64,000 nt of DNA from Gammaproteobacteria bacterium. Its GTDB lineage: Bacteria > Pseudomonadota > Gammaproteobacteria > Arenicellales > JAJDZL01. A program made the translations under genes and the position numbers. The stretch covers positions 8,445-72,444 of the forward strand of contig JAKZRU010000006.1 in the NCBI GenBank assembly GCA_047517965.1, read 5' to 3'. The notes below the pieces were generated by a model. The model saw only the letters and a list, made by a program, of their open reading frames with translations, did no database searches and was not told where the DNA came from. Position 1 is the stretch's first letter, and each line of letters begins with the position of its first letter. Shown one piece after another: positions 7,568-24,783 of the stretch.

Positions 7568-9304
7568 TTACATTGATTCCGGAGTTGAAACGCCGAGCGT
7601 ATCAAGACCGTTAGCCAGCACCTGCCTCACTGCGTATATCAGGTCTAGTCGCGCAGAACGCAAGGGTGGTTCACAGTCAAGAATTCGTTCCTTGTTGTAG
7701 AACGAGTGGAATTCAGTTGCAACATCTCTGAGGTAATACGCGACTTGGTGCGGCTCAAAACTGGATGCAGCATTTTGTATGACTTCTGGATATTTGACGA
7801 GACTTTTGATCAAACCGAGTTCCGCTTCCGAAGCAAGCAACGAAAGATTGCTATTCCTGCCGCGAGCGATGCCGCGTTCGGACATTTGACGAAATACACT
7901 GCAAATTCGAGCATGTGCGTACTGAACATAGTAGACAGGATTTTCGTTTGACTCCTCTTTGGCTAGGTCAAGATCGAAGTCAAGATGTTGTTCGGATTTA
8001 CGAAGAACATAAAAAAATCTGGCTGCGTCCTTTCCAGTTTCCTCTACAAGTTCCCTTAGTGTTACAAATTCTCCAGCACGCGTGGACATTGGAATTTTTA
8101 CTGAGGCTCGATAAAGAGATGCAAATTGAACGAGTAATATTTTGAGCCGATTGGAATCTTCGCCAGCAGCCTGCAGCGCAGCCATCATTCTCGCAATATA
8201 GCCATGATGATCCGCACCCCAGATATTTATAACGTAATTATAATCTCGATTGAGTTTATCCAGGTGATAGGCAATATCCGATGCGAAGTAAGTGAGCTCA
8301 CCATTGGAACGTACCAGCACCCGATCTTTCTCATCGCCGAACTCACTGGAACGAAACCAGGTGGCACCTTCCGATTGATAAAGGAATCCCCGCTCCTGTA
8401 GTTGCGAAACTGTATGCTCAACATCCCCTCGTTCCAAAACACGGCTTTCGAAGAACCACTCATCATGAGCAACGCCAAGAATTTTAAGGTCGTCACGAAT
8501 CATTTCCACCATTTCAGTGAGGACAAATTGCCGCAGAGTATTGAAATCGTCATTGCCTAGCGATTGTCTGCACCAGGAGATCAACTTCGTCAAAACAAGG
8601 TCTTTGTCATCATTTTCGACAGCAGGCGGATAATTTCCCAGGCGAGCGAATTCGGCGTCGACTTGCTCTCGGAAGGCCCTTGCACAGTCAATGATGTACT
8701 CGCCTTGATACGCACCGACTGGCAAAGTTACGTCCTTGCTGTGCAACTGAAGGTAACGAATCCAGACACTGGTACAAAGGATGTCCATCTGTCGACCCAG
8801 ATCATTGACGTAATATTCCGTGTCTACGTGATGGCCGGCAACTCTTAGAAGTCGTGCTAGCGCATCTCCAAAAGCCGCGCCTCGGCCGTGCCCTACATGA
8901 AGAGGCCCTGTCGGATTGGCGGATACAAACTCCAAGAGAATTCGATCTGGATTATTTAGATCACCCGCTCCATAGTCATTGCCTTGATCGAGGATCTCGG
9001 CAACTGCACCTGCCAATGCAAGGTCTGAAAGAAAAAAATTGATGAACCCCGGACCGGCTACTTCTGTCTTACTCAGGAAATCAGCCACAGGCAGAATTTC
9101 CTGAATCATTGCGGCAAGTTCTGTTGGCTTCAATCCGTTAGGGCGCGCCATGCTCAATGCAACACCTGTTGCATAGTCTCCCTGTCCGGCTCGACGAACG
9201 CTGTCGACGGGGATGGCAGCCGGTACGCTTGCTTCTGACACAGTGCCGGAGTCGACCAATGCGTCAACGGATTGCTTCAACAATTCTTGAATTTTGCTTT
9301 TCAT
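7568..9304 (-). CDS. argS: arginine--tRNA ligase
   Basis: 578 aa with the HIGH-type motif 'PTGPLHVGHGRGA', the KMSKS-type 'MSTRAG' and a full-length class I aaRS pattern. Confidence 0.95.
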   Translation of the reverse strand: MKSKIQELLKQSVDALVDSGTVSEASVPAAIPVDSVRRAGQGDYATGVALSMARPNGLKPTELAAMIQEILPVADFLSKTEVAGPGFINFFLSDLALAGAVAEILDQGNDYGAGDLNNPDRILLEFVSANPTGPLHVGHGRGAAFGDALARLLRVAGHHVDTEYYVNDLGRQMDILCTSVWIRYLQLHSKDVTLPVGAYQGEYIIDCARAFREQVDAEFARLGNYPPAVENDDKDLVLTKLISWCRQSLGNDDFNTLRQFVLTEMVEMIRDDLKILGVAHDEWFFESRVLERGDVEHTVSQLQERGFLYQSEGATWFRSSEFGDEKDRVLVRSNGELTYFASDIAYHLDKLNRDYNYVINIWGADHHGYIARMMAALQAAGEDSNRLKILLVQFASLYRASVKIPMSTRAGEFVTLRELVEETGKDAARFFYVLRKSEQHLDFDLDLAKEESNENPVYYVQYAHARICSVFRQMSERGIARGRNSNLSLLASEAELGLIKSLVKYPEVIQNAASSFEPHQVAYYLRDVATEFHSFYNKERILDCEPPLRSARLDLIYAVRQVLANGLDTLGVSTPESM

Positions 9305-9317
9305 TGAATCCAGGGAA

Positions 9318-11555
9318 TCAAGAGAAATCGACAGGGTCTACATCCAGACTCCATCGCAACTTACCTTTCTTTGGCAACTTATCCAGCTTCGCCATCCAAT
9401 CGCCTAAAAACTGTCTTAGAACAACTGAATTCTCGCCTGTTGTGAGAAGCTGGGCTCGATATCTATTGGAAATTTTTTGTATCGGAGACTGTACTATATC
9501 AAATACTTCCACACCTTGATAAGCATCTCCACCCAACAGGCTTAATGCGCTGCGGTGCGCTTTTTTCAGAAATACAATTTCTTCACCGTGCTGCATGGAA
9601 TTCGCACGAAGCAAGGCGTAGTTCGAATAGGGAGGTTGTTTGGCTTCTTCCCTATTTTTCAATTCCAGCGCAGCAAAAGCCAGATAGTCGTGGTTTCGTA
9701 TGCAGTCAAAAAACTTGCTTTCCGGGTGGGATGTTTGAATAAATACATCGCCAGGCTTTTCTACTCGTCCGGCTCGTCCGGCAACCTGCAACACCTGCTG
9801 AACCATCTGTTCCATTGCTCGAAAATCAATGCTATAGAACCCCTGGTCCACATTCAATACTCCAACCAGAGTGACGTTGGGAAAGTGATGCCCCTTTGAA
9901 AGCATCTGAGTTCCGACGAGAACATCCACTTCGCCCTTTTGAATACGTTTGAATTTGTGTTCGAATTCAGCATATGAATGGGTAGTATCTCGGTCAATTC
10001 GCATAATCCGTGCCCCTGGCAGCCTGTTCTGCAATGTCTGTTCAACTCTCTGCGTTCCCTGTTGAAGCAGCTCGACATGATGAGACTTACAGTTGGGGCA
10101 CTTTTGCACGAACTCCGCCCTGATCAGACAATGGTGGCAATGAAGCCTGTTGTCGGACGCATGAAATATCAGGTTTGCGTCGCAGTTGTTGCACTTTGCA
10201 ACCCATTTACAGTCATAGCAGATGATTACTGGTGCATACCCACGCCGATTGATGAATATCAGGCTCTGCTCGCCGCGTTCGATCCGATTGTTGATTTCAT
10301 TCAACATCGTAACAGCAATTCCGTTATACGCGGCTGATCGGCTGAGATCAATCAATTTCACCGCAGGCATTTCGACATTGGTGGCACGCTGAGGTAGTTC
10401 CAGAGTCTCGACGCGACCGCTACGAGCGGCATGTACGGTTTCCAGTGAAGGAGTTGCGGTTCCGCACAAGATTGGGAAATTGCCGATGGCTGCACGATAG
10501 ATCGACACTGCGCGAGCATGATAGCGGGCCCTTTCCTGTTGTTTGAAAGAAGTATCGTGTTCCTCGTCAATTACGATCATTGCAAGAGCCTTGAATGGTA
10601 AAAATACTGCTGATCTGGTACCGATGACAACCTGCGCCTGACCGGAACGCGCAAGCCACCAAGTCCGATGACGCTGCGCATCCGTCAATCCGGAATGGTA
10701 GGAGGAAACCGGTATTCCCAACGCATGTCGAACGCGCTGTTCCAATTGCGGAGTTAGTCCGATTTCGGGTACTAGCATCAATGCCTGTCCGCCGCTTTCC
10801 AATACCTTGCAAATCGCTTGAAGGTAGACTTCGGTTTTACCACTACCTGTAACACCCTGAATAAGAAAGCTTTGGTAGTGATTCAGACTGCTCAATATGC
10901 GGTCGAGTGCGGCAATCTGAGCAAACGTCAAGTCTTGGATCAAGTTCATCTCGCAACGGTGTCCGTGATGAACTAAAGGTTCCGCCAACACCCAATGTTT
11001 TGCTATCAGTTGTCGAAGTGCCGACCGCCAACTGCTTCCGGCCATCTTTAGCTGATCCTTACCAACGATATCCTTGCTGGCTTTCAACAGTTCAACGATC
11101 GCTCTCTGAACGCGAGCGTGTGAGAATTCGACAGGATTAATGTTCAAGCCCAGGTCTGACAGCCGGTAACCCATCTCAAATTTCGGTTGCATTGGGCGAC
11201 CGTAGCGAATCGCTTGCGGAAGTGCAGACCAAAGTATCTCTCCAATCGGTTGCTGGTAGTACTCCGAAGTCCAGCGCACGGTGCGAAGCAGGTTCGTTGA
11301 GATAGCAGGCTCATCATCAAGAACGGACTGAATCGCTCGAATCTTTTCTTTCGGCAAATGCGATTCTTGCGCATGTTCTACGACGATGCCGACTCTGCTC
11401 TGTTTGTCAAATGGAATGATGACGCGACTTCCAACCGGCACTTCCGCCAATGAATTACACTTGTAGTCAAACAGGCTCATGTGCCGTATTGGCACTGCGA
11501 CTCGAACAATTCCGCTCAATCGATTACCTGATTTTCGCAGTAAAATTCCATGCAC
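9318..11555 (-). CDS. priA: primosomal replication protein N' (PriA helicase)
   Basis: 745 aa with Walker A 'GVTGSGKTEVY', 'DEEHD' and the Cys-rich zinc region 'CYDCKWVAKCNNCDANLIFH...HCHHC'. Confidence 0.95.
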   Translation of the reverse strand: MHGILLRKSGNRLSGIVRVAVPIRHMSLFDYKCNSLAEVPVGSRVIIPFDKQSRVGIVVEHAQESHLPKEKIRAIQSVLDDEPAISTNLLRTVRWTSEYYQQPIGEILWSALPQAIRYGRPMQPKFEMGYRLSDLGLNINPVEFSHARVQRAIVELLKASKDIVGKDQLKMAGSSWRSALRQLIAKHWVLAEPLVHHGHRCEMNLIQDLTFAQIAALDRILSSLNHYQSFLIQGVTGSGKTEVYLQAICKVLESGGQALMLVPEIGLTPQLEQRVRHALGIPVSSYHSGLTDAQRHRTWWLARSGQAQVVIGTRSAVFLPFKALAMIVIDEEHDTSFKQQERARYHARAVSIYRAAIGNFPILCGTATPSLETVHAARSGRVETLELPQRATNVEMPAVKLIDLSRSAAYNGIAVTMLNEINNRIERGEQSLIFINRRGYAPVIICYDCKWVAKCNNCDANLIFHASDNRLHCHHCLIRAEFVQKCPNCKSHHVELLQQGTQRVEQTLQNRLPGARIMRIDRDTTHSYAEFEHKFKRIQKGEVDVLVGTQMLSKGHHFPNVTLVGVLNVDQGFYSIDFRAMEQMVQQVLQVAGRAGRVEKPGDVFIQTSHPESKFFDCIRNHDYLAFAALELKNREEAKQPPYSNYALLRANSMQHGEEIVFLKKAHRSALSLLGGDAYQGVEVFDIVQSPIQKISNRYRAQLLTTGENSVVLRQFLGDWMAKLDKLPKKGKLRWSLDVDPVDFS

Positions 11556-16812: not shown

Positions 16813-19749
16813 ATGTCCCTTGAATCCAACGACAGTCAGTATGACAGTATACAAACCTTAAACGAACTAGAACTCACCAACGACTTTGTCAGAAGGCATA
16901 TCGGGCCTGGGCCTGTACAGGTCCAACAGATGCTGGAGAAGCTTGGAGTTGATTCTCTAGACGAGTTGATTGATCAAACAGTTCCAAAGAAACTCCAATC
17001 CAACAAACCTCTGCATCTGCCGTTTCCTGCAGGAGAAAACGAAACTATCAGCTACATTCGCCGTATGCGCGAAAGAAATCATGTATTTACCTCAATGATT
17101 GGCATGGGATACCATGCGACCGTTCTTCCGGGCGTGATTCGAAGAAATATTCTTGAAGATCCAGGCTGGTACACCGCCTACACGCCATACCAGGCTGAGG
17201 TGAGTCAAGGCAGACTGGAAGCACTGCTTGTTTTCCAGGAGATGGTAACCGATCTTACCGGAATGGAGATCGCCAATGCATCTTTACTTGACGAGGCAAC
17301 TGCCGCGGCCGAAGCCATGGCAATGTCAAAACGAATTTCCAAAACCAAGTCTCAGAAATTCCTAGTTTCTGACGACTGCCATCCGCAGACAATTGCTGTT
17401 GTCGAAACACGTGCAAACTCATTGAATTTCGAGGTCATCGTTGGCGACATCGAATCGCTGGTGAATTCCGAAGAAGAATATTTTGGCATTCTGTTTCAAT
17501 ATCCAGGTTCAACCGGGCGAGTATTTGACATAACCCGTGTGGTAGAAGTGGCGCATGAGCGAAAAGCCATTGTGACCGTCGCCTCTGATTTGCTGGCGTT
17601 GTGCCTGTTTAAGCCACCAGGTGAGTTTGGCGCAGACATCGTAGTAGGTAACACCCAGCGCTTCGGCGTGCCTATGGCCTATGGCGGCCCCCATGCTGCC
17701 TACTTGGCCACGCGTCACGACTACAGACGAACGCTTCCGGGAAGGCTGATTGGCGTTTCAGTGGACAGCCGTGGTAAAACTGCACTTCGAATGGCACTAC
17801 AGACACGTGAACAGCACATCCGACGTGACAAAGCAACCAGCAACATATGCACTGCACAGGTTCTGCTTGCAATAGTCGCCGCATTTTACGCGGTCTACCA
17901 TGGTCCCGAAGGATTGAAGAACATTGCGTCCAAAATTCACCGGTTCACACTTATTACTGCGGAGGGATTGCGCCAACTAGGTTACAAAGTCATACATGAT
18001 GTGGTTTTCGACACCTTAATGGTCAATGCTCATGGACAAGCACGCAGAATTGCCGCCAGGGCTCGTGAATCAAGAATTAATTTGCGAGTGATCGATGCTG
18101 ACCACATCGGCATTACACTAGATGAAACCACCAAACGAGTTCATCTCGAAAGACTGTGGGCAATTTTCGATACCCGCGCGAATGCAAAAATTACTATTGA
18201 CCAGTTGGACGCAGTTGTCAAAGACGTCATACCGGAGAATTTGAGCCGGACAAGTTCCTATCTGACACATCCCACTTTCAGTCTATATCAATCGGAAACC
18301 CTGATGTTGCGATACATTCGGCAACTCGGACAAAAAGACATCGCATTGAACCGGTCGATGATTCCACTGGGCTCATGCACCATGAAACTGAATTCAACGA
18401 CTGAAATGACGCCGGTTACATTTCACAAATTCAGCGCCATTCATCCATTCGCGCCATTGGATCAAACGCAAGGCTACCATCAACTGGTGGAAGAACTGGA
18501 AACGATGTTGTGTGAAATTACCGGATTCGATGCGATTTCTTTTCAGCCAAATGCGGGCTCCCAAGGAGAATACACCGGATTGCTTTGCATCAAGAAATAC
18601 CTTCAGCAACAAGGCGAAGGTCATCGCAACGTCTGCCTTATTCCGGAATCCGCGCACGGCACCAATCCTGCCAGCGCTGCTTTGGCCGGTTTACGCGTAG
18701 TCGTCGTGAAGTGTGACAAAATGGGCAACGTCGACGTTGCCGATCTCAAAGCAAAGCTAGAGAAACATCAAAACGAAGTTGCCGCATTGATGATTACCTA
18801 TCCATCAACCCATGGCGTGTTTGAAGAACAAATTATCGATATATGCGATCTGGTTCACGAATTCGGTGCGCAGGTTTACCTAGATGGTGCAAACATGAAC
18901 GCGTTGGTCGGTATATGCCTTCCTGCCGAATTTGGAGCAGATGTCGCACACATCAACCTGCATAAGACTTTCTGTATCCCGCACGGCGGAGGCGGTCCGG
19001 GAATGGGGCCGATTGGAGTGAAGAGCCACCTTTCGCCTTTTCTGCCAGATCACTGTGTGGTTGAAGGCGTTAACCCCTATGCAGGACGTGAACCGACCAT
19101 TGGCAGTGTATCAGCGGCGCCGTGGGGTTCGGCGGGCATACTTCCAATCTCGTGGGCTTACATTTCAATGATGGGGGCTGAGGGACTCCGCTATGCCACT
19201 GAAATTGCCATCTTGAATGCAAACTACATGGCAAAAAGACTGCAGCCGCATTATCCGATACTGTATCGAGGGCGAAATGATCGCGTCGCACATGAATGCA
19301 TCATTGATTTACGCCAGATCAAAAAAAACACCGGCATCACTGTTGAAGATGTAGCCAAACGCTTGATTGATTTTGGTTTTCACGCTCCAACAGTTTCCTT
19401 TCCGGTAGCCGATACGATGATGATTGAGCCAACGGAAAGCGAAGCAAAGCGCGAAATAGATCGATTCTGCGATGCGATGATTCAGATTCGCAGTGAGATT
19501 ACCGATATTGAGTCAGGCGATTCCGACACTGAAAACAATCCATTGAAAAACGCACCACATACCTTTGATTTGCTCGTTCAGGAAAACTGGGAGTTGCCTT
19601 ACACAAGGCAGGAAGCATTCTTTCCGTTGGAATGGGTCTGGCACGACAAGTACTGGCCGCCAGTCAGTAGAATTGATAATGTTTATGGTGACCGTTATAT
19701 CGTCTGCAGCTGCCCGCCTCTTTCTGAGTGGGCAGAAGAAGAAAGCTAA
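16813..19749 (+). CDS. gcvP: glycine dehydrogenase (decarboxylating), P protein
   Basis: 978 aa, single-chain P protein, with the PLP-lysine region 'NLHKTFCIPHGGGGPGMGP' and 'ESAHGTNPASA'. Confidence 0.96.
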   Translation: MSLESNDSQYDSIQTLNELELTNDFVRRHIGPGPVQVQQMLEKLGVDSLDELIDQTVPKKLQSNKPLHLPFPAGENETISYIRRMRERNHVFTSMIGMGYHATVLPGVIRRNILEDPGWYTAYTPYQAEVSQGRLEALLVFQEMVTDLTGMEIANASLLDEATAAAEAMAMSKRISKTKSQKFLVSDDCHPQTIAVVETRANSLNFEVIVGDIESLVNSEEEYFGILFQYPGSTGRVFDITRVVEVAHERKAIVTVASDLLALCLFKPPGEFGADIVVGNTQRFGVPMAYGGPHAAYLATRHDYRRTLPGRLIGVSVDSRGKTALRMALQTREQHIRRDKATSNICTAQVLLAIVAAFYAVYHGPEGLKNIASKIHRFTLITAEGLRQLGYKVIHDVVFDTLMVNAHGQARRIAARARESRINLRVIDADHIGITLDETTKRVHLERLWAIFDTRANAKITIDQLDAVVKDVIPENLSRTSSYLTHPTFSLYQSETLMLRYIRQLGQKDIALNRSMIPLGSCTMKLNSTTEMTPVTFHKFSAIHPFAPLDQTQGYHQLVEELETMLCEITGFDAISFQPNAGSQGEYTGLLCIKKYLQQQGEGHRNVCLIPESAHGTNPASAALAGLRVVVVKCDKMGNVDVADLKAKLEKHQNEVAALMITYPSTHGVFEEQIIDICDLVHEFGAQVYLDGANMNALVGICLPAEFGADVAHINLHKTFCIPHGGGGPGMGPIGVKSHLSPFLPDHCVVEGVNPYAGREPTIGSVSAAPWGSAGILPISWAYISMMGAEGLRYATEIAILNANYMAKRLQPHYPILYRGRNDRVAHECIIDLRQIKKNTGITVEDVAKRLIDFGFHAPTVSFPVADTMMIEPTESEAKREIDRFCDAMIQIRSEITDIESGDSDTENNPLKNAPHTFDLLVQENWELPYTRQEAFFPLEWVWHDKYWPPVSRIDNVYGDRYIVCSCPPLSEWAEEES

Positions 19750-19815
19750 TACCCGTCAGACTGAAGAAAACGATCGACTCTGTTTGCCGCTATTGACGTA
19801 GGGTATAAGGCAAGT

Positions 19816-19958
19816 TTAGTGATGAACGATTTGCTTTGCTGATTTCAACAAAGCTTTCATTTATGATGAATACTTGATGGTGCACTTTCAACAAATTCTT
19901 CGTGATTTTTCTCAATGTTACTGAGCTTGTTCAGATAGTTCACGATCAAGGCGAATGA
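19816..19958 (-). pseudogene. 3'-terminal fragment (about codons 419-468) of malonyl-CoA decarboxylase
   Basis: The minus-strand frame reads 'SFALIVNYLNKLSNIEKNHEEFVESAPSSIHHK*'. The intact copy at 22598..24004 reads 'SFGLMVNYQYKLSNIEKNHEEYVEIGTIKYSS...'. The DNA is visibly alignable to 22598-22740. Confidence 0.8.
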
Positions 19959-20324
19959 AGTATCCACTCCTAACAACTCGTAGATCCTCGGTTGCTTCAT
20001 TTCCGGAACGGTCGCTTTTCGAACATGCAACATTCGACCATCCTTACGTTCGTATACGATCGTTATGCGTTGTACGCTTTACATGATTTTACGGATTCGG
20101 TCCCAACTGTATTTGCAACCACCGGCCTTAAGGCGGTGTCGAGTCAACTGCACCAGTTGAAACGCAATCGTGTTTAACAGAAGATGATGTCGAGAATTTT
20201 GCGTATTGAAAGATTCAATCTACTTTCGGCGCTGATCCCAACTCCATGCTTTGTCCTCAAAATTGATGGCGGTATTCTCGATATACCAGTTACCTATGTC
20301 ATTGATTGCAATATCATCATCGAA
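19959..20324 (-). mobile_element. possible degraded DDE transposase C-terminal remnant (IS4/IS1634-like pattern)
   Basis: My minus-strand translation gives one frame with only 2 stops: 'FDDDIAINDIGNWYIENTAINFEDKAWSWDQRRK*IESFNTQNSRHHLLLNTIAFQLVQLTRHRLKAGGCKYSWDRIRKIM*SVQRITIVYERKDGRMLHVRKATVPEMKQPRIYELLGVDT'. The W-x-IE-x-F motif, the hydrophobic helix and the short tail resemble the ends of IS4-group transposases. I saw no terminal inverted repeats and no catalytic core. Confidence 0.35.
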
Positions 20325-20342
20325 TTATGGCTTGCACCGCAT

Positions 20343-21353
20343 TCATCTGGAACGACACACTACGAGGTTAATCATCTCGTAAGCAATGGTAGCCGCTGCC
20401 AGAGAAGTGATCTCCGCATGGTCATAAGCAGGCGAAACTTCAACGATATCTGCAGCGACCAGATTCACGCCGGCTAATCCACGAAGAATGTTTAGTAGTT
20501 CGCGAGTGGTTAGTCCTGCAATTTCAGGTGTTCCTGTTCCGGGTGCATGAGCAGGGTCAAGCACATCAATGTCAATGGAAAGATAAAGAGGGTGATCGCC
20601 AATTCGATCGCGTATTCGTTTTGCCACATGATCCGGTCCATGTTTCTCAAGTTCGTCGCAGTGGATTGTCTTAAACCCCAGCTCCTGATCGTTTTTCAGA
20701 TCATCCGGACTGTACAGGGGGCCGCGAATTCCGACATGCATGGATGCGTCTTCCATAAAGAGCCCTTCTTCCGCTGCACGTCGAAAGGGTGTTCCATGGG
20801 TGTATGGTGCCCCGAAATAAGTATCCCATGTATCTAGATGCGCATCAAAATGTACCAGCGCGACTGGCCCTTTGACTTTTTTATTTGCTGCTCTAAGCAG
20901 TGGTACCGCAATGGTATGATCGCCTCCCAGGCTGACAATTGCATCAGTGTGTTTGTTCAGGTCTGTCGCGGTCCTTTCAATTTGAAGGATTGCTTCATCA
21001 ATGCTGTAGGGATTGCATGCCGCATCCCCGGCATCGGCAACCTGAAGGGATTTGAATGGTTCGGTCTGATAGACAGGATGGAAGTTGTAACGCAGGTGTC
21101 GGGATGCCTGTCGAATGGCCTGGGGCCCAAAGCGTGCCCCTGGCCGATAACTGGTTCCGGAATCAAAAGGAACGCCAAGGATAGCTACATCACACCAAGA
21201 TACATCCCGTAGTTCAGGCAGTCGGCAAAATGTTGAGGGCCCCGCATAGCGAGGAACTATCGTGCCGCTGATCGGTTCCTTGGGGGAGTGGCTTTTTTTT
21301 ATTGTTTTATTGGTGTTTGGAGAAACAGTATCGAATTCAATTTCTGAGTGCAA
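20343..21353 (-). CDS. arginase-family ureohydrolase (agmatinase / guanidino-acid hydrolase)
   Basis: 336 aa with the Mn-binding motifs 'HFDAHLDTWD', 'SLGGDHTIAVP' and 'SIDIDVLDPAHAPGTGTPE'. TTG start. Confidence 0.88.
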   Translation of the reverse strand: MHSEIEFDTVSPNTNKTIKKSHSPKEPISGTIVPRYAGPSTFCRLPELRDVSWCDVAILGVPFDSGTSYRPGARFGPQAIRQASRHLRYNFHPVYQTEPFKSLQVADAGDAACNPYSIDEAILQIERTATDLNKHTDAIVSLGGDHTIAVPLLRAANKKVKGPVALVHFDAHLDTWDTYFGAPYTHGTPFRRAAEEGLFMEDASMHVGIRGPLYSPDDLKNDQELGFKTIHCDELEKHGPDHVAKRIRDRIGDHPLYLSIDIDVLDPAHAPGTGTPEIAGLTTRELLNILRGLAGVNLVAADIVEVSPAYDHAEITSLAAATIAYEMINLVVCRSR

Positions 21354-21587
21354 GTGTCATGTTCTATCAGAGATTACGGGAACCGTTAACTGGTTGACAA
21401 GACGGAAGTTTATATATACATCAGCTTTGAGACCCCATCAATAATAATTTTCAGTAGAGTTTAAAAAAATGGATTGCAAATGAAAGCGCAATTGCGAAAC
21501 AGCACTTTTACCTCATTATCGTGTTACAACTCACGGATTTTTTAAGAGCGAGAGATCCTGTAATATTGGGTGTATAACACAACTTGA

Positions 21588-22040
21588 TTAAGTGACGGCC
21601 TGATTTGGTTCAATCAACTTTTCTGAAAGCGAGGCAGGTTGCTTCCAAGTAATTCTTTTGAGCTTAAGAATGCCGATGTCAAGCCAGGAGATCAGGAGCT
21701 CACGCAAGTCCCTATTCAGTGGTTCAAGTTCCAATCCAGATTTCGAGAATCTGTTAATGTCAGCGTGCATGTCGATCAGAAACTTGACTCCGCTTGGCAG
21801 TGCGTTGAACTGAGTTAACAGCTTAATCCAGGGAGGGCGCAGTCTATTTCTCAGGTTTTCAAGCCGTTCCGCAGATTGATCTGCATTAACGAGAAATTCT
21901 TGCAGAGTCGCCTTCAAATTTGATTGATCAATACCGAATTCTGGTCGCGAGCAGGTGCAAAAACCTAAATCTTCCCTCATCGTTCAAGTCAAGATAAACC
22001 TGGCCTAATCCAGCTGCTCTCACCCGAGCCGATACTTCAC
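21588..22040 (-). pseudogene. internal fragment (about codons 61-205) of malonyl-CoA decarboxylase
   Basis: The ORF at 21588..21980, 'FGIDQSNLKATLQEFLVNADQSAERLENLRNRLRPPWIKLLTQFNALPSGVKFLIDMHADINRFSKSGLELEPLNRDLRELLISW', parallels residues of the intact copy. The DNA aligns to about 23390-23822, with an extra T causing a frameshift near 21945. The left boundary is approximate. Confidence 0.8.
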
Positions 22041-22531
22041 AACAAAATGGGCAACGTCAACATTGCCGATCTCAAAACCAAGCTAGAGAAACATCAAAAA
22101 GAAGTTGCCGTATTAATGATTACCTATCCATCAACCCATGGCGTATTTGAAGAACAGATTACCGATATATGCGATCTGGTTCCCTTTCCAGTAGCCGATA
22201 CGATGATGATTGAGGCAACGGAAAGCGAAGCTCGAAATAGATCGATTCTGCGATGCGATGATTCAGATTCGCAGTGAGATTGCCGATATTGAGTCAGGCG
22301 ATTCCGACATTGAAAACAATCCATTGAAAAACGCACCACATACCTTAGATTTGCTCGTTCAGGAAACCTAGGAGTTGCCTTACACAAGACAGGAAGCATT
22401 CTATCCGTTGGAGTGGGGTCTGGCACGACAATTACTGGCCGCCAGTCAACAGAATTGACGATGTTTATGGTGACCGTTATATCGTCTGCAACTGCCCGCC
22501 TCTTTCTGAGTGGGCAGAAGAAGAGAGCGAA
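22041..22531 (+). pseudogene. gcvP 3' fragment with an internal deletion of about 540 bp and frameshifts
   Basis: '[45 protein letters not shown]' matches gcvP codons from about 636 and jumps directly to '[17 protein letters not shown]...'. A 5-bp deletion follows, and TAA is replaced by GAA at the position of the stop. Confidence 0.85.
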
Positions 22532-22597
22532 AACCCGTCAGACTGAAGAAAACAGTCGACTCTGTTCGCCGTTATTGACGTAGGACACTAGACAAGT

Positions 22598-24004
22598 TTA
22601 GTGACTAACGCTTTGCTTTGCTGATTTCAGCAAAGCTTTCATTTGTGATGAATACTTGATGGTGCCGATTTCAACGTATTCTTCGTGATTTTTCTCAATG
22701 TTGCTGAGCTTGTACTGATAATTCACCATCAAGCCGAAGGAACGGCGTAGGCCGACTTCTGATCTATTGCCCAGCCAGTTGACTTGCTCTATTTCGGCAC
22801 CGTTGGTTAAATGGAAATTGGCTACGGAGTCCAACGCACCCCTATTTCGCTTTTCGTTGATCAAATAGTGGGCACACAATCGTTTGAGCAGTGGAGCCAG
22901 TTCTTTTTTGGCTTTCAGAATTTGGTAACTGCAAACCGCAGATAAATCATGCACTAACTCATCTAGGGCCTGTCGTTCCGTAGAATTGAACAACCGCGTT
23001 TCATCCATGTCTAGTAGTTTTTCCACAAATTTTCTGTATCCTGAAACAGGCGACAAAGTCGCGAAAGTCCTAAGGCTCGGGAACTCTCTTGCTAAATCAT
23101 CAACAACTCGCTTGATAAGAAAATCTCCCAGGCCCACACCTCGAAGCCCGCGTTGTGTATTAGTAATTGAATAGAAAATAGCAGTATCTGCAGTTTCAGG
23201 ATTTTCAACCGGGGCGGCATCGTCAAGCAATACCTGTATATTCTCCGATATCCCGTTTACCAAAGCCACTTGCACAAAAATTAGCGGTTCTTCGGGCATT
23301 CTGGGATGGAAATATGCATAGCAGCATCGGTCGGTATCCAGCCTGTTCTTCAAGTCACCCCAAGACTGAATTTCATGGACCGCTTCATGTTCAATCAATT
23401 TTTCTAAAAGCGAGGCTGGTTCCTTCCAAGTAATTCTTTTGAGCTCAAGAAAGCCGATGTCAAACCAGGATATCAGGAGCTCACGCAAGTCCCTGTTCAG
23501 TGGTTCAAGTTCCAATCCCGATTTCGAGAATCTGATAATGTCGGCACGCATGTCGATCAGAAACTTGACTCCGCTTGGCAGTGCGTTGAACTGAGTGAAC
23601 AGCTTAAGCCAGGGAGGGCGCAATCTCTTTCTCAGATTTTCAAGCCGTTCCGCAGATTGATCTGCATTAGCGAGAAATTCTTGCAGAGTCGCCTTCAATT
23701 TTGATTGATCAACGCCGAATTCGGTCGCGATCAGGCGCAAAAACCTAAATCTTCCCTCATCGTTCAAATCAAGATAGACCTGGCCTAATCCAGCTGCTCT
23801 CACCCGAGCCGACACTTCACCTCCTCGAGATTCAAGACAGTTCTGCATTTGCTTACGCAATACTTCAAGATCGGAATCGGATAATTCCGGCCGAAGAGTT
23901 TGCGTTTTGCCTTTCCCTTTAGCGGAGATCCTTCGCCAACCCAATGAGAAGTTGCCAAGAGTGCGGTCAATGACCGAACGAGAATCGATTACTTTAAGCG
24001 GCAT
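22598..24004 (-). CDS. malonyl-CoA decarboxylase
   Basis: 468 aa. The C-terminal 'VANFHLTNGAEIEQVNWLGNRSEVGLRRSFGLMVNYQYKL' matches the conserved MCD (MLYCD-type) catalytic-domain motif, and the helical N-terminal domain is present. Confidence 0.85.
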   Translation of the reverse strand: MPLKVIDSRSVIDRTLGNFSLGWRRISAKGKGKTQTLRPELSDSDLEVLRKQMQNCLESRGGEVSARVRAAGLGQVYLDLNDEGRFRFLRLIATEFGVDQSKLKATLQEFLANADQSAERLENLRKRLRPPWLKLFTQFNALPSGVKFLIDMRADIIRFSKSGLELEPLNRDLRELLISWFDIGFLELKRITWKEPASLLEKLIEHEAVHEIQSWGDLKNRLDTDRCCYAYFHPRMPEEPLIFVQVALVNGISENIQVLLDDAAPVENPETADTAIFYSITNTQRGLRGVGLGDFLIKRVVDDLAREFPSLRTFATLSPVSGYRKFVEKLLDMDETRLFNSTERQALDELVHDLSAVCSYQILKAKKELAPLLKRLCAHYLINEKRNRGALDSVANFHLTNGAEIEQVNWLGNRSEVGLRRSFGLMVNYQYKLSNIEKNHEEYVEIGTIKYSSQMKALLKSAKQSVSH

Positions 24005-24081
24005 GGCGGTAAATAACCCGGTCTTGTGGTTCGAAACTGGTTCCTGAATTGGTCAATAAATCAATCGTTTATAATTCCTGA

Positions 24082-24783
24082 TCAAGTCAATTCTGTTTCC
24101 CCAAAAACATTCATGACATCCGTATTGTCTAGAACGCTCATATTGATTGATGTTCCGTCAACTGAATTCAGATAAGCGATATTTTGCCCAACGTCTAATT
24201 CAGAATAGTGGAGGGTTGCAGCACAGTACGATTGTAAATCTTCAATTTCCATCGCCGTGAGAATTCCGTTGCCAATCTCCTGTCTAATTCTCTTCTGAGC
24301 ACGAACATCCAGAGCGAGCATCTCAAGTTTCACTTGCTTTTCATCTGCCAAAAGATTTCGAATTCTGAAGCCCGTTGCACCTTTGCAACTCTTGAGTTCA
24401 CTGTTCAATTTAGTAGAGAATTCTGTACCGATGCAACAAAGTCCAGCACCGGAAATGAGCAATGTAGATTGTGCGACAAATTCACTGGCTTCTAGAACCG
24501 CTTGATCAATGCCGCAATCTTCATCCAGCAGCAAATAAGAAACTTCCGCTCCAAATCCACTGCCATCCTGAATAATTTCGCGCACCTGTGCTACATTCTC
24601 AGGCGCCGAACCGATCAGAATTTTGCCAATTCCTGCACTGACCATCATTTCCAGTGGATATCGAATTCTAGGGCATTCCAACAACGCTCCAGTCAGATTG
24701 AATGTTTTTGCAAGCGGTAAGTGAGAATCCGACCATTTGCCAAGAGCAAATATGAATCCTTTGACATTCAATTTATTCGACAA
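24082..24783 (-). CDS. divergent sugar-phosphate nucleotidyltransferase-like (RmlA-fold) protein lacking the G-x-G-T-R-L signature
   Basis: 233 aa. 'KGFIFALGKWSDSHLP...RIRYPLEMMVSAGIGKILIGS...DGSGFGAEVSYLL' is collinear with the RmlA N-terminal domain, but 'LGKWSDSHL' replaces 'GGSGTRL'. Confidence 0.45.
   Translation of the reverse strand: MSNKLNVKGFIFALGKWSDSHLPLAKTFNLTGALLECPRIRYPLEMMVSAGIGKILIGSAPENVAQVREIIQDGSGFGAEVSYLLLDEDCGIDQAVLEASEFVAQSTLLISGAGLCCIGTEFSTKLNSELKSCKGATGFRIRNLLADEKQVKLEMLALDVRAQKRIRQEIGNGILTAMEIEDLQSYCAATLHYSELDVGQNIAYLNSVDGTSINMSVLDNTDVMNVFGETELT

Follow-up and report, generated by a model that had tools for sequence, protein, structure and literature searches.

Probable ancient duplication of a convergent gcvP-mcd junction, carrying a relocated agmatinase gene and decaying in uncultured marine Arenicellales

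Results

Genes and remnants at the locus

The locus lies in a 64,000-nucleotide stretch of DNA (hereafter the window, meaning the whole stretch that was analysed) and consists of intact, convergent gcvP and mcd genes with an agmatinase gene and several gene remnants between them. In the following list of features, copies 1 and 2 are those of the putative duplicated unit described below.

16813..19749, + strand: gcvP, glycine cleavage P protein, intact (Pfam); its final 1,034 bp (18716-19749) form the gcvP part of copy 1
19750..19815: gcvP-mcd intergenic spacer of copy 1, 66 bp, aligning with 22532-22597 in repeat B
19816..19959, - strand: dead mcd 3' stub, the mcd end of copy 1, codons ~418-468, 1-bp frameshift (repeat B)
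19960..20189, - strand: IS1634-family transposase remnant, last ~70 codons, one internal stop (NCBIfam)
about 20190..20340, - strand: GNAT acetyltransferase gene remnant, ~58 codons of its 5' end without the start, interrupted by one stop (tblastn)
20343..21353, - strand: agmatinase, speB-type ureohydrolase, intact, apparently relocated (Pfam, NCBIfam)
21354..21607: AT-rich spacer upstream of the agmatinase gene, within the cassette, 254 bp
21588..21980, - strand: ORF within the dead mcd region, MCD_N fragment (Pfam MCD_N, 7e-18)
21608..22040, - strand: dead mcd middle piece, left arm of repeat C, codons ~63-205, 1-bp insertion, 93.3% identical to 23389-23820
22040..22042: putative duplication joint J3, mcd codon ~62 fused to gcvP codon ~635, an additional A at the fusion
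22042..22531, + strand: dead gcvP tail of copy 2, lacking the equivalent of 18857-19392 (repeats A and B)
22532..22597: gcvP-mcd spacer of copy 2, 66 bp (repeat B)
22598..24004, - strand: mcd, malonyl-CoA decarboxylase family, intact, 468 aa (Pfam); 22598-23820 belongs to copy 2, and repeat C has its right arm at 23389-23820

Both flanking genes, described as intact in an earlier sequence-only reading of this DNA, encode the Pfam domains of their families (full-length GDC-P, 3.6e-198, and GcvP2_C, 1.9e-61, in the 978-aa gcvP product; MCD, 2.5e-98, and MCD_N, 3.5e-22, in the 468-aa mcd product). When the window's MCD was used as the tblastn query, the dead 3' stub was found to be split over two frames (residues 448-468 and 417-445).

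Direct repeats and the duplicated unit

BLASTN self-alignment bore out the proposed recurrence of the gcvP/mcd junction in direct orientation. Three pairs of repeats were found, all direct: A (18716-18856 with 22042-22182, 141 bp, 92.9%, E 2e-55), B (19393-19959 with 22179-22742, 569 columns, 90.7%, 3 gaps) and C (21608-22040 with 23389-23820, 433 bp, 93.3%). In the second gcvP copy, 536 bp corresponding to 18857-19392 are missing, a gap previously put at about 540 bp; it lies at about 22182/22183 and has TTC in both flanks. The earlier count of three mcd-derived and two gcvP-derived segments was correct, and small corrections apply to positions: the third mcd piece is present but begins at 21608 and not at 21588, the gcvP codon at the 22040/22041 joint is ~635 instead of ~636, and the spacer estimated at about 230 bp measures 254 bp.

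Judged from the layout, the locus fits one direct duplication of 2,323 bp over an ancestral gcvP> <mcd junction, with the new joint at 22040/22041. The order of the pieces matches A-[S][S]-D exactly, with a single novel joint, which is the topology of one segmental duplication and agrees with the duplicated junction suggested earlier. Comparison of J3 with both parental sites revealed no direct microhomology, only a 1-base filler A. The suggestion that one of the two copies had been shattered did not hold: each copy is half live and half dead. In copy 1 the dead part is mcd and in copy 2 it is the gcvP tail, and both dead parts lie between intact gcvP and intact mcd. Nothing suggests a function for the dead pieces. 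In two other gammaproteobacterial MAGs, gcvTHP is convergent on mcd at a distance of one or two genes. None of the compared genomes has the undisturbed gcvP> <mcd junction or the duplication without the cassette, and the duplication step, the cassette step and their order are therefore reconstructed rather than observed.

The agmatinase cassette

A cassette of 1,648 bp occupies the place of 646 bp of the dead mcd. It is composed of the 254-bp spacer, the agmatinase gene, the ~58 first codons of a GNAT gene and the ~70 last codons of an IS1634-family transposase. The agmatinase (Pfam Arginase, 1.2e-97), placed in this family by the earlier reading, scored above the NCBIfam agmatinase cut-offs (NF002564, 318.8 versus 302; TIGR01230, 228.6 versus 174.3). 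It is not a foreign import: related marine Gammaproteobacteria, Arenicellales among them, have a conserved gene with which it shares 80-87% identity, its GC and GC3 are ordinary, and the 5' end of the GNAT gene, its usual downstream neighbour, still trails it. L081, L084, L085 and L086 share the order speB>GNAT>rph, and the GNAT stump is 42-45% identical to the GNAT proteins of L084, L081 and L086 (tblastn E 2e-13 with the whole window as target, 3e-15 to 6e-17 with this region only); L107 carries an open version of it, P0121. The window agmatinase differs from that neighbourhood in lying between gcvP and mcd, and the GNAT 3' part, rph and ham1 are absent from the window. The spacer matches nothing else in the window, nor the DNA preceding speB in L081 and L084-L086; it is 92-94.5% identical between the window and other lineages (90-96% for all lineage pairs), which is a neutral level of divergence. 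Among 80 mcd loci, the agmatinase gene adjoins mcd in this clade alone. Its DNA is 96-97% identical in L001, L003, L083 and L107.

The segment 19959-20324 had been read as a transposase-like remnant, which is right for about 19960-20189, while about 20190-20340 is the GNAT 5' end. The former matches positions 412-482 of the 483-position profile NF033559 (E 2.7e-5, 23 bits), the C-terminal end of the family model. The search of this stub found no Pfam match, no remaining terminal repeat and no close intact relative. Its outer junction cuts within the transposase reading frame, and therefore neither end of the cassette is a transposition end; both ends are truncated, with no IS terminus and no target duplication. 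The earlier view that an IS-associated event delivered or trapped the ureohydrolase gene thus stands insofar as the gene sits in dead DNA beside an IS remnant; involvement of the IS in the move is inferred from this adjacency and the 23-bit partial match.

The sister strains L101 and L102 have intact IS1634-family elements at this locus. They are ~2 kb long, with ends CCGAAGTT, a 6-bp AT-rich target duplication and transposases of 571-589 aa (304-313 bits), and the stub is not close to them. The family is IS4-related with the end consensus C-----YT, and variable direct repeats of 8-514 bp have been reported for two members (PMC2266710). The window copy differs in being only ~230 bp long, without ends or target duplication and with a stop codon. 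The agmatinase gene is frameshifted in several sister strains of the window's species and IS-disrupted in another; a live IS1634-family element has struck it in that strain.

Shared junctions and separate deletions in related lineages

Comparison of the gcvP-mcd locus in related genomes, which had been advised earlier, revealed the same junctions with different later deletions in L001, L003 and L107. At least five independent assemblies, which differ in sample and in sequencing technology, are collinear with the window at 99.8-99.95%. J1 (19959/19960) and J2 (21607/21608) are identical in the window, L083, L001 and L107; L003 has an identical J2 but has lost J1. J3 is present in L087-L091 and L099 and deleted in L001 and L003. 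Furthermore, dead copies from different lineages have derived bases in common. The deletions are distinct. L001 has a 388-bp deletion over J3, flanked by GCCGAT(G/C)TCAAA, and an 800-bp deletion with ATGGTG at its flanks; it retains the bases equivalent to 18857-18887 and does not have the window's 536-bp deletion. In L003, 19752-20319 and 21762-22568 are gone. These data replace the single IS-associated fragmentation proposed earlier with one 646-bp replacement common to all lineages, followed by lineage-specific deletions. The live genes are well conserved: gcvP is 95-96% identical and indel-free in L001, L003 and L107, and mcd is 100% identical in L087-L091 and 94-96% identical at the DNA level, with no indels, in L001 and L003 (the protein has 62% aa identity to that of L002).

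Divergence and continuing recombination

Only ~7 fixed differences in ~690 bp (~1%) separate all dead from all live copies. The copies were thus only ~1% apart when the lineages split, and most of the 7-10% divergence is later decay, not the sign of a diverged source for which the ~10% difference had alternatively been taken. Substitutions between dead copies (46 nonsynonymous to 17 synonymous, versus 78% nonsynonymous sites) look neutral. Dead-versus-live differences show some synonymous excess (30:20), in the direction expected if the divergence partly arose between two functional copies, but compared with the dead-dead control the excess does not reach significance (Fisher p = 0.16). Gene conversion between copies, seen in the L001 spacers, blurs any dating based on divergence.

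The sequence-only reading had also predicted that the repeats would permit loss of the agmatinase gene. Recombinational loss does occur, but L083 lost the live mcd instead: 1,780 bp, including 408 mcd codons, were removed via the 433-bp mcd repeat. The single remaining C copy is dead-type except for its last 52 bp, which correspond to the longest perfectly identical block between the repeats. Because the L083 interior has window-specific dead-copy changes, the missing second unit is secondary in this lineage. L107 also lacks the second unit and probably lost mcd by the same C-repeat exchange.

Discussion

We consider it likely that the locus as a whole reflects an old duplication and a cassette replacement followed by continuing decay. 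In an ancestor with gcvT-gcvH-gcvP convergent on mcd, as the topology suggests, a 2,323-bp unit (gcvP codon ~635 to the stop, the 66-bp spacer, and the mcd stop back to codon ~62) would have been doubled in direct orientation. The product, gcvP(5')-[unit][unit]-mcd(5'), would have kept one gcvP and one mcd whole and left a 5'-truncated mcd and a 5'-truncated gcvP tail, fused at 22040/22041. The cassette, whose structure is shared among the lineages, would then have taken the place of 646 bp of internal dead mcd sequence, where an insertion was presumably cost-free. The GNAT stump and the transposase tail inside the cassette indicate that the agmatinase gene was excised from the speB-GNAT-rph neighbourhood where it normally resides, an IS1634-family element having most likely assisted. 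Both events are older than the split of at least five lineages (the window, the L083 donor, L001, L003 and L107), which are ~4-6% apart, and our reconstruction traces the duplication to an ancestor of several uncultured marine Arenicellales. Thereafter, the dead pieces have drifted neutrally and have suffered lineage-specific deletions, several of them flanked by short repeats. The remaining repeats still recombine, as in the C-repeat exchange that destroyed mcd in L083, and the agmatinase gene itself has been hit in strains of the window's species by frameshifts and a live IS insertion.

One could envision other histories. The cassette might first have broken mcd when this gene was present only once, a state that L107 and L083 now show, and mcd might later have been restored by linear DNA from a nearly identical relative, carrying gcvP from codon ~635 to its end plus mcd. 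Such a fragment would have integrated homologously on the mcd 5' side and illegitimately at 22040/22041 (homology-facilitated illegitimate recombination, HFIR), with the old pieces kept. L107 forms a lineage of its own, at a species-level distance equal to that of L001 and L003, and shows exactly such a simple interrupted mcd, and equal parsimony allows it to stand for the state before the second unit existed; J3, with its 1-base filler and no microhomology, is compatible with an illegitimate join; the slight synonymous excess points the same way; and HFIR is an established route with one homologous and one illegitimate end (PMC3240628). We nevertheless think this history rather unlikely. Additional selection would have to be invoked, along with a donor fragment whose start fell inside gcvP by chance, and the ~1% of fixed differences requires no diverged donor. 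Moreover, none of gcvP, speB and the spacer places L107 as an outgroup to the window, L001 and L003, its mcd codons 1-60 and upstream DNA show no greater divergence from the other lineages than its flanks do, and L083 shows that the same structure can arise secondarily via the C repeats.

The remaining alternatives fare worse. If the dead mcd had come from a second mcd-agmatinase locus that recombined with the gcvP-mcd locus, one would look to L084 and L085, in which the agmatinase gene is immediately preceded by an MCD-family gene on the same strand. Their MCD, however, is 36% identical to that of the window, whereas the dead pieces are ~90-93% identical at the DNA level to the window's own mcd; the dead gcvP tail would still require duplication of the gcvP-mcd junction, and the confinement of the agmatinase-mcd adjacency to this clade also makes this source highly improbable. 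Transposition of an IS1634-family element, or of a composite transposon bearing the agmatinase gene, might have produced the repeats as a very long target-site duplication. The stub inside the cassette and the variable repeats reported for two family members bring this to mind, but it is just as improbable: such a duplication predicts [S]-insert-[S], whereas the cassette sits within the first unit and the units abut directly at J3 with no IS between them, the 2.3-kb unit is far above the reported range, and the live copy in L102 makes an ordinary 6-bp AT-rich duplication. Finally, the 7-10% difference between copies and the several short-read scaffolds that end inside the region (L092-L096) could be taken to mean that the contig was stitched from two strain variants ~10% apart, an alternative raised in the earlier reading. 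The comparative data refute this, to the point that we give it virtually no credence. Contigs of at least four independent assemblies, from both long and short reads (samples ERZ28763718, ERZ25074053, ERZ23496031 and ERZ23496618), contain the whole mosaic in collinear form at 99.8-99.95%, lineages ~5% diverged (L001, L003 and L107) hold decayed versions with the same junctions, and the dead copies show frameshifts as well as substitutions of a neutral pattern.

HFIR together with sequential gene displacement in which orphan remnants stay behind, as in the effector/immunity arrays of the Vibrio cholerae T6SS (PMC5361080), resembles the locus in having a new functional copy beside fragments of an older one, with one homologous and one illegitimate junction (PMC5361080, PMC3240628). 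The difference is that the ~1% stem divergence calls for no diverged donor here and that in-place duplication accounts more simply for the extra gcvP tail.

Duplication followed by decay remains our preferred reading, under which the locus is a clear example of ordinary genome decay by processes that are all already known, with no new mechanism. Segmental tandem duplication creates a novel join point, and the redundant DNA then decays as pseudogenes under the bacterial deletion bias; tandem duplications are normally unstable. The locus conforms in its topology, its one new joint and its single functional copy of each gene, in the frameshifts, neutral substitutions and microhomology-flanked deletions of its redundant halves, and in the further loss that results from recombination between its repeats. 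It differs in that it has outlived ~5% sequence divergence, in that it spans a convergent gene junction, so that both leftovers are 5'-truncated, and in that it became the landing site of a relocated housekeeping-type gene.

Direct repeats outline a probable gcvP-mcd duplication

We propose that the mosaic between gcvP (glycine cleavage P protein) and the convergent mcd gene (malonyl-CoA decarboxylase family) would have arisen by one 2.3-kb direct duplication spanning the gcvP-mcd junction and by an IS1634-associated relocation of an agmatinase gene, together with the stump of a GNAT acetyltransferase gene, into the dead copy of mcd (we call intact genes live and decayed partial copies dead). 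Both the duplication and the relocation would be older than the split of at least five lineages; later changes would comprise deletions specific to each lineage, drift, gene conversion and losses through the repeats. The features concerned are listed here.

Genes and direct repeats of the gcvP-mcd region
16813..19749, plus strand: gcvP, 978 aa, complete (Pfam, NCBIfam)
20343..21353, minus strand: agmatinase, arginase family, above both curated agmatinase cut-offs
within 21588..21980, minus strand: MCD_N fragment (Pfam)
22598..24004, minus strand: mcd, 468 aa, both MCD domains (Pfam)
18716-18856 and 22042-22182, direct: repeat A, 141 bp, 92.9% identity
19393-19959 and 22179-22742, direct: repeat B, 569 alignment columns, 90.7% identity
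21608-22040 and 23389-23820, direct: repeat C, 433 bp, 93.3% identity

Exactly these three direct-repeat pairs, and no others, were found when 18000-24500 was compared with the whole window by BLASTN, and a find-repeats scan was concordant. The order on the plus strand begins with intact gcvP, a 66-bp spacer, a dead mcd 3′ stub and junction J1 (19959/19960); there follow an IS1634 transposase tail, the GNAT 5′ stump, the agmatinase gene and a 254-bp spacer, which make up the cassette and end at J2 (21607/21608), and then a dead mcd middle piece, the duplication joint J3 (22040/22041), a dead gcvP tail with a 536-bp gap, a 66-bp spacer and intact mcd. The junction sequences are GGCGAATGAAGTATCCACTCC (J1), GGCCTGATTTGGTTCAATCAAC (J2) and CGATACTTCACAACAAAATGGGC (J3). 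Tblastn with the window's own MCD protein assigned the dead mcd pieces to codons ~63-205 (21608-22040) and ~417-468 (19816-19959, frameshifted). Checked by BLASTN, Pfam, NCBIfam and tblastn, the sequence-only reading had described this mosaic correctly save for minor coordinate shifts; the loss of about 540 bp that it had noticed inside the second gcvP copy is 536 bp, the counterpart of 18857-19392. Its main proposal, a duplication followed by an IS-associated event that broke up one copy and brought in or captured the agmatinase-family gene, holds in outline.

With the cassette and the gap set aside, the layout is gcvP(5′)-[S][S]-mcd(5′), which matches the pattern A-[S][S]-D. The duplicated unit S is 2,323 bp long and runs from gcvP codon ~635 to the stop codon, through the spacer, and from the mcd stop codon back to codon ~62; its first copy takes in the final 1,034 bp of intact gcvP. 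The copies are adjacent, have the same orientation and meet at one novel joint, J3, where mcd codon ~62 is fused to gcvP codon ~635 with one extra A and with direct microhomology absent. This topology is what a single direct segmental (tandem) duplication leaves behind.

Immediately before the gcvP breakpoint comes the 7-mer GTGAAGT (18706-18712), the reverse complement of ACTTCAC, which lies at the mcd breakpoint of the duplication joint (22034-22040 and 23814-23820). We rejected this inverted pair as the cause of the duplication because it would favor an inverted rather than a direct product; the match is probably due to chance.

The live genes and their probable ancestral order

The protein encoded by live mcd carries full-length PF17408 (MCD_N) and PF05292 (MCD) domains, both above cut-off, and belongs to the malonyl-CoA decarboxylase family, with a predicted substrate; no NCBIfam model matched it. 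The mcd gene is 100% identical in contigs L087-L091 of the window's own species. Purifying selection acts on the live genes (omega 0.07-0.23).

A plain gcvP> <mcd junction free of any insert was found in no genome among those compared. In a more distant relative, L002 (MCD 62% identical), neither gcvP nor agmatinase lies near mcd. In two gammaproteobacterial MAGs, L026 and L028, gcvT-gcvH-gcvP is convergent on mcd with one or two genes between (MCD ~51% and gcvP ~67% identical to those of the window), and hence the gcvP-mcd neighborhood is not peculiar to the window's clade. That the two genes were once directly adjacent we infer from the occurrence of this adjacency in both copies of the unit.

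The cassette carries a predicted agmatinase gene and an IS1634-like stub

The cassette (19960-21607, 1,648 bp) stands in place of a 646-bp stretch of mcd whose live counterpart is 22743-23388. The product of 20343..21353 is a predicted agmatinase (SpeB, arginase/ureohydrolase superfamily), with scores of 318.8 against NF002564 (cut-off 302) and 228.6 against TIGR01230 (cut-off 174.3); the PF00491 arginase domain spans residues 55-327 and is full-length. Outside its own cluster, its nearest relatives, proteins with 80-87% identity, occur in a great many MAGs of marine Gammaproteobacteria and Arenicellales. In four such genomes (L081, L084, L085 and L086), agmatinase is followed by GNAT, RNase PH and Ham1 genes, and its upstream neighbor is variable; of this neighborhood, the window retains only agmatinase and the GNAT stump. 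The sequence-only reading had suggested comparing the codon usage of the ureohydrolase gene with that of its flanks. The base composition gave no foreign signal, the GC content (0.499) and GC3 (0.421) being inside the range of the neighboring genes, which rules out a foreign origin on compositional grounds. Taken together, the 80-87% identical relatives, the GNAT stump and the ordinary GC content indicate that the agmatinase gene would be the lineage's own, or that of a close relative, relocated rather than imported from an exotic source.

The minus-strand frame from 20342 to 19960 has two stops and is otherwise open. Its first part (~20340-20190) resembles, in tblastn, the N-terminal ~58 residues of the GNAT acetyltransferase from L084, L081 and L086 (42-45% identity, E 2e-13 against the window), where the matching gene sits immediately downstream of agmatinase; an open version of the stump, P0121, is present in L107, a separate lineage. 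The remainder (~20189-19960) matches positions 412-482 of the 483-position profile NF033559 (IS1634-family transposase; E 2.7e-5) and ends at J1, ~10 codons before the natural end of such proteins. At 23.4 bits, this stub falls short of the family cut-off of 100 and is a fragment, not an element. The IS1634 assignment, weak by score, gains credibility because sister strains carry four IS1634-family transposase genes (151-313 bits) at the same locus. One of these lies in a clean 2,035-bp insertion inside the agmatinase gene of L102 (window 20491-20496; ends CCGAAGTT/AACTTCGG, target duplication TTTAGT, 312 bits). Members of the published IS1634 family are 1.5-2 kb long, have C-----YT ends and generate AT-rich target duplications of 5-6 bp (PMC2266710); the L102 element fits in ends, duplication and size, its length being just over the tabulated 1,500-2,000 bp, and it qualifies as a family member. 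In L101, three IS1634-family transposase genes (one truncated) and an rve fragment replace everything left of window 21814, that is, left of the dead mcd piece.

No terminal inverted repeat, IS terminus or target duplication is left in the stub (19960-20189). A search for its intact parent gave no match in Pfam, the same stub in relatives only in a protein word-index search, and one weak, unannotated match in tblastn against plasmids; a profile built from the local IS1634 transposases did not match the stub either. The cassette does not have the form of a composite transposon, since the single truncated IS remnant lies on one side, the 21607/21608 side contains no IS sequence, and there is no target duplication. 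It is possible that a composite structure was once present and was later erased by deletions. The 254-bp spacer showed no similarity to agmatinase-upstream DNA of relatives, to mcd or to the rest of the window.

In L087, L088 and L089, one G is missing from a GGG run (21235), which shifts the agmatinase reading frame at codon ~40, and the gene calls of L097, L098 and L102 give the same truncated products. Two of these, L097 and L098, duplicate contigs L087 and L089, so that the frameshift allele is present on at least four distinct contigs; it is absent from the window, L090-L093, L083, L001, L003 and L107. Several independent assemblies of the species carry it, and because long-read and short-read data agree, it seems to be a genuine polymorphism and not an error of sequencing.

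The junctions are shared by related lineages

Within the window's own species, L087-L091 and L099, which comprise long-read contigs (two samples) and short-read scaffolds (other samples), are collinear with the window across the full mosaic at 99.8-99.95% identity. The agreement of these independent contigs excludes a chimeric assembly, which had been put forward as the alternative in the sequence-only reading. The closest species representatives are Arenicellales MAGs. L001 (~94% DNA identity) shares the window's layout from gcvP to J2, with J1 and the cassette in between; beyond J2, there remain only 76 bp of the dead mcd middle, a 149-bp piece of the dead gcvP tail and, further right, the final ~60 bp of this tail, ahead of the spacer and intact mcd. 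In L003, gcvP, the agmatinase gene, the spacer and J2 are in place, 158 bp remain of the dead middle piece, and mcd is intact; 19752-20319 and 21762-22568 have been lost. J1, the cassette and J2 are also present in L107, which is 94-96% identical throughout. At its left edge, the dead middle piece reads CCTGATTTG|GTTCAATCAAC in the window, L001, L003 and L107 alike, and the dead copies have derived bases in common that are found in no live copy.

Decay of the dead copies and the origin of the second unit

The dead gcvP piece of L001 keeps bases equivalent to 18857-18887, which are lost from the window's copy, and its own gap is equivalent to 18888-19687, unlike the window's; the deletions were, therefore, independent. 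Short repeats flank several of them: GCCGAT(G/C)TCAAA at a 388-bp deletion across J3 in L001, ATGGTG at the 800-bp deletion of L001 and TTC at the 536-bp deletion of the window. When dead copies from different lineages are compared, their substitutions look neutral (46 nonsynonymous and 17 synonymous, with 78% of sites nonsynonymous). Gene conversion also appears to have been at work between the repeats: both 66-bp spacer copies of L001 share three L001-specific bases and are identical over ~55 nt, which points to short-tract conversion, and the two spacer copies of the window are widely different. On the reverse complement of L001, these copies lie at ~8180-8260 and ~10340-10420, equivalent to window 19750-19830 and 22532-22612.

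Few differences are fixed between all available dead copies and all live ones: repeat C has 3 in 433 bp, the mcd stub has 4 in ~145 bp, and ~110 bp of repeat A has none. The copies would thus have been ~99% identical when the lineages separated, and the present 7-10% divergence would mostly reflect later lineage-specific drift. The main uncertainty in our account is whether the unit was duplicated in place or whether the cassette first knocked out mcd and near-identical DNA carrying the second unit was integrated later. The ~1% fixed difference means that a diverged donor is not needed, and it fits both an in-place duplication and a donor from the same population. J3 is a joint of the illegitimate type, as homology-facilitated illegitimate recombination would produce, and no donor signature was found, given the ~1% divergence on the stem and an mcd 5′ end in L107 that is not unusually diverged. 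Polarized nonsynonymous-to-synonymous counts (dead-live 30:20 versus 46:17) lean slightly toward import from the same population, and the difference is not significant (Fisher p = 0.16).

All of the processes involved are known, and no new mechanism or gene family is revealed. The value of the locus is that of a worked example, and lies in the completeness of the record at a single site: across at least five lineages and several co-existing strains, it documents segmental duplication, relocation of a conserved gene with the stump of its neighbor, neutral drift in the remnants, deletions that arose separately and are flanked by microhomology, conversion between the copies, and the loss of a functional gene through the repeats. 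It also suggests that a tandem-type duplication, once interrupted, can survive species-level divergence. For annotation and binning, the region should be treated as real and not as a chimera; short-read scaffolds break there.

Recombination through the repeats

L083, a long-read contig of 84 kb recovered from the sample that also gave L088 and L090, matches the window with an identity of 99.5% or more in gcvP and rightward of mcd codon 60. It has one copy of C and has lost 1,780 bp that, in the window, hold the dead gcvP tail, a spacer and codons 468-61 of mcd, leaving gcvP, the stub, the cassette and mcd codons 205-1, and no working mcd. The C copy is of the dead type until its final 52 bp, which are the longest perfectly identical block between the two C repeats; within repeats of 93% identity, this is where a crossover is expected. 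The second unit is present in L001 and L003, and L083 must therefore have lost it secondarily. L083 is a recombinant: it diverges from the window by 2-7% across ~19500-22040 (agmatinase 96.3%, spacer 93.3% identical) versus ~0.3-0.5% in the flanks, and the right part of its C copy has changes otherwise specific to the window's dead copy; both observations indicate that the interior derives from a sister lineage of the window's, as judged from these alignments. On its right side, the diverged tract stops where repeat C ends. The single-copy structure recurs in L107, where it represents either a second loss or a state that never possessed the second unit. In some members of the group, both mcd and agmatinase are dispensable.

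One sample, ERZ25074053, yielded three alleles of the locus, on contigs whose names are tagged 410x, 195x and 42x. One could envision that the repeat scaffold is a standing recombinational switch through which co-existing strains of this Arenicellales population shed mcd or agmatinase, the alleles being balanced by selection; mcd could be lost through the 433-bp repeats and agmatinase through the gcvP-tail and mcd-stub repeats. We consider this very improbable. Among contigs that encode exactly this mcd protein, no collapse allele, a plain gcvP> <mcd arrangement with agmatinase lost, was seen. By a related idea, the placement of agmatinase downstream of mcd could itself be selected, because in L084 (8435-10963) and L085 (2800-5328) the gene immediately upstream of the orthologous agmatinase, and in the same orientation, is an MCD-family gene of unrelated type. 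The mcd-agmatinase order thus occurs twice with unrelated MCD genes. An ancestral or widespread adjacency was rejected, as the MCD of L084 and L085 is only 36% identical to the window's and the order is absent from 78 other mcd loci; we treat it as a coincidence.

Additional observations

Glycine riboswitches are common upstream of gcvT in other bacteria; Rfam gave no family at gathering score in the whole 64-kb window, including the region upstream of gcvT (15260). A scan of 19600-24200 for promoters and terminators gave site counts no higher than in shuffles, and we, therefore, make no regulatory claim. A hairpin with a 9-bp stem, GCTTTGCTGATTTCA[A/G]CAAAGC, is present in the final mcd codons of both copies (19833-19854 and 22615-22636). 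The one at 22615-22636 is followed by a T-rich run on the plus strand and was scored as terminator-like; it might terminate transcription in the gcvP direction.

The single mcd middle piece of L107 contains a 25-bp insertion, CCTCATCGTCAATCAGGAACTTGAC (reverse complement, ~9890-9915, equivalent to window ~21975), which is similar to nearby mcd sequence and is probably a small local duplication. The gcvP gene is split by 1-base insertions in L090 (at window 19543) and L096 (at window 19074), which may be assembly errors or real defects; L096 has ~3x coverage, and L090 is a 2.65-Mb contig at 410x.
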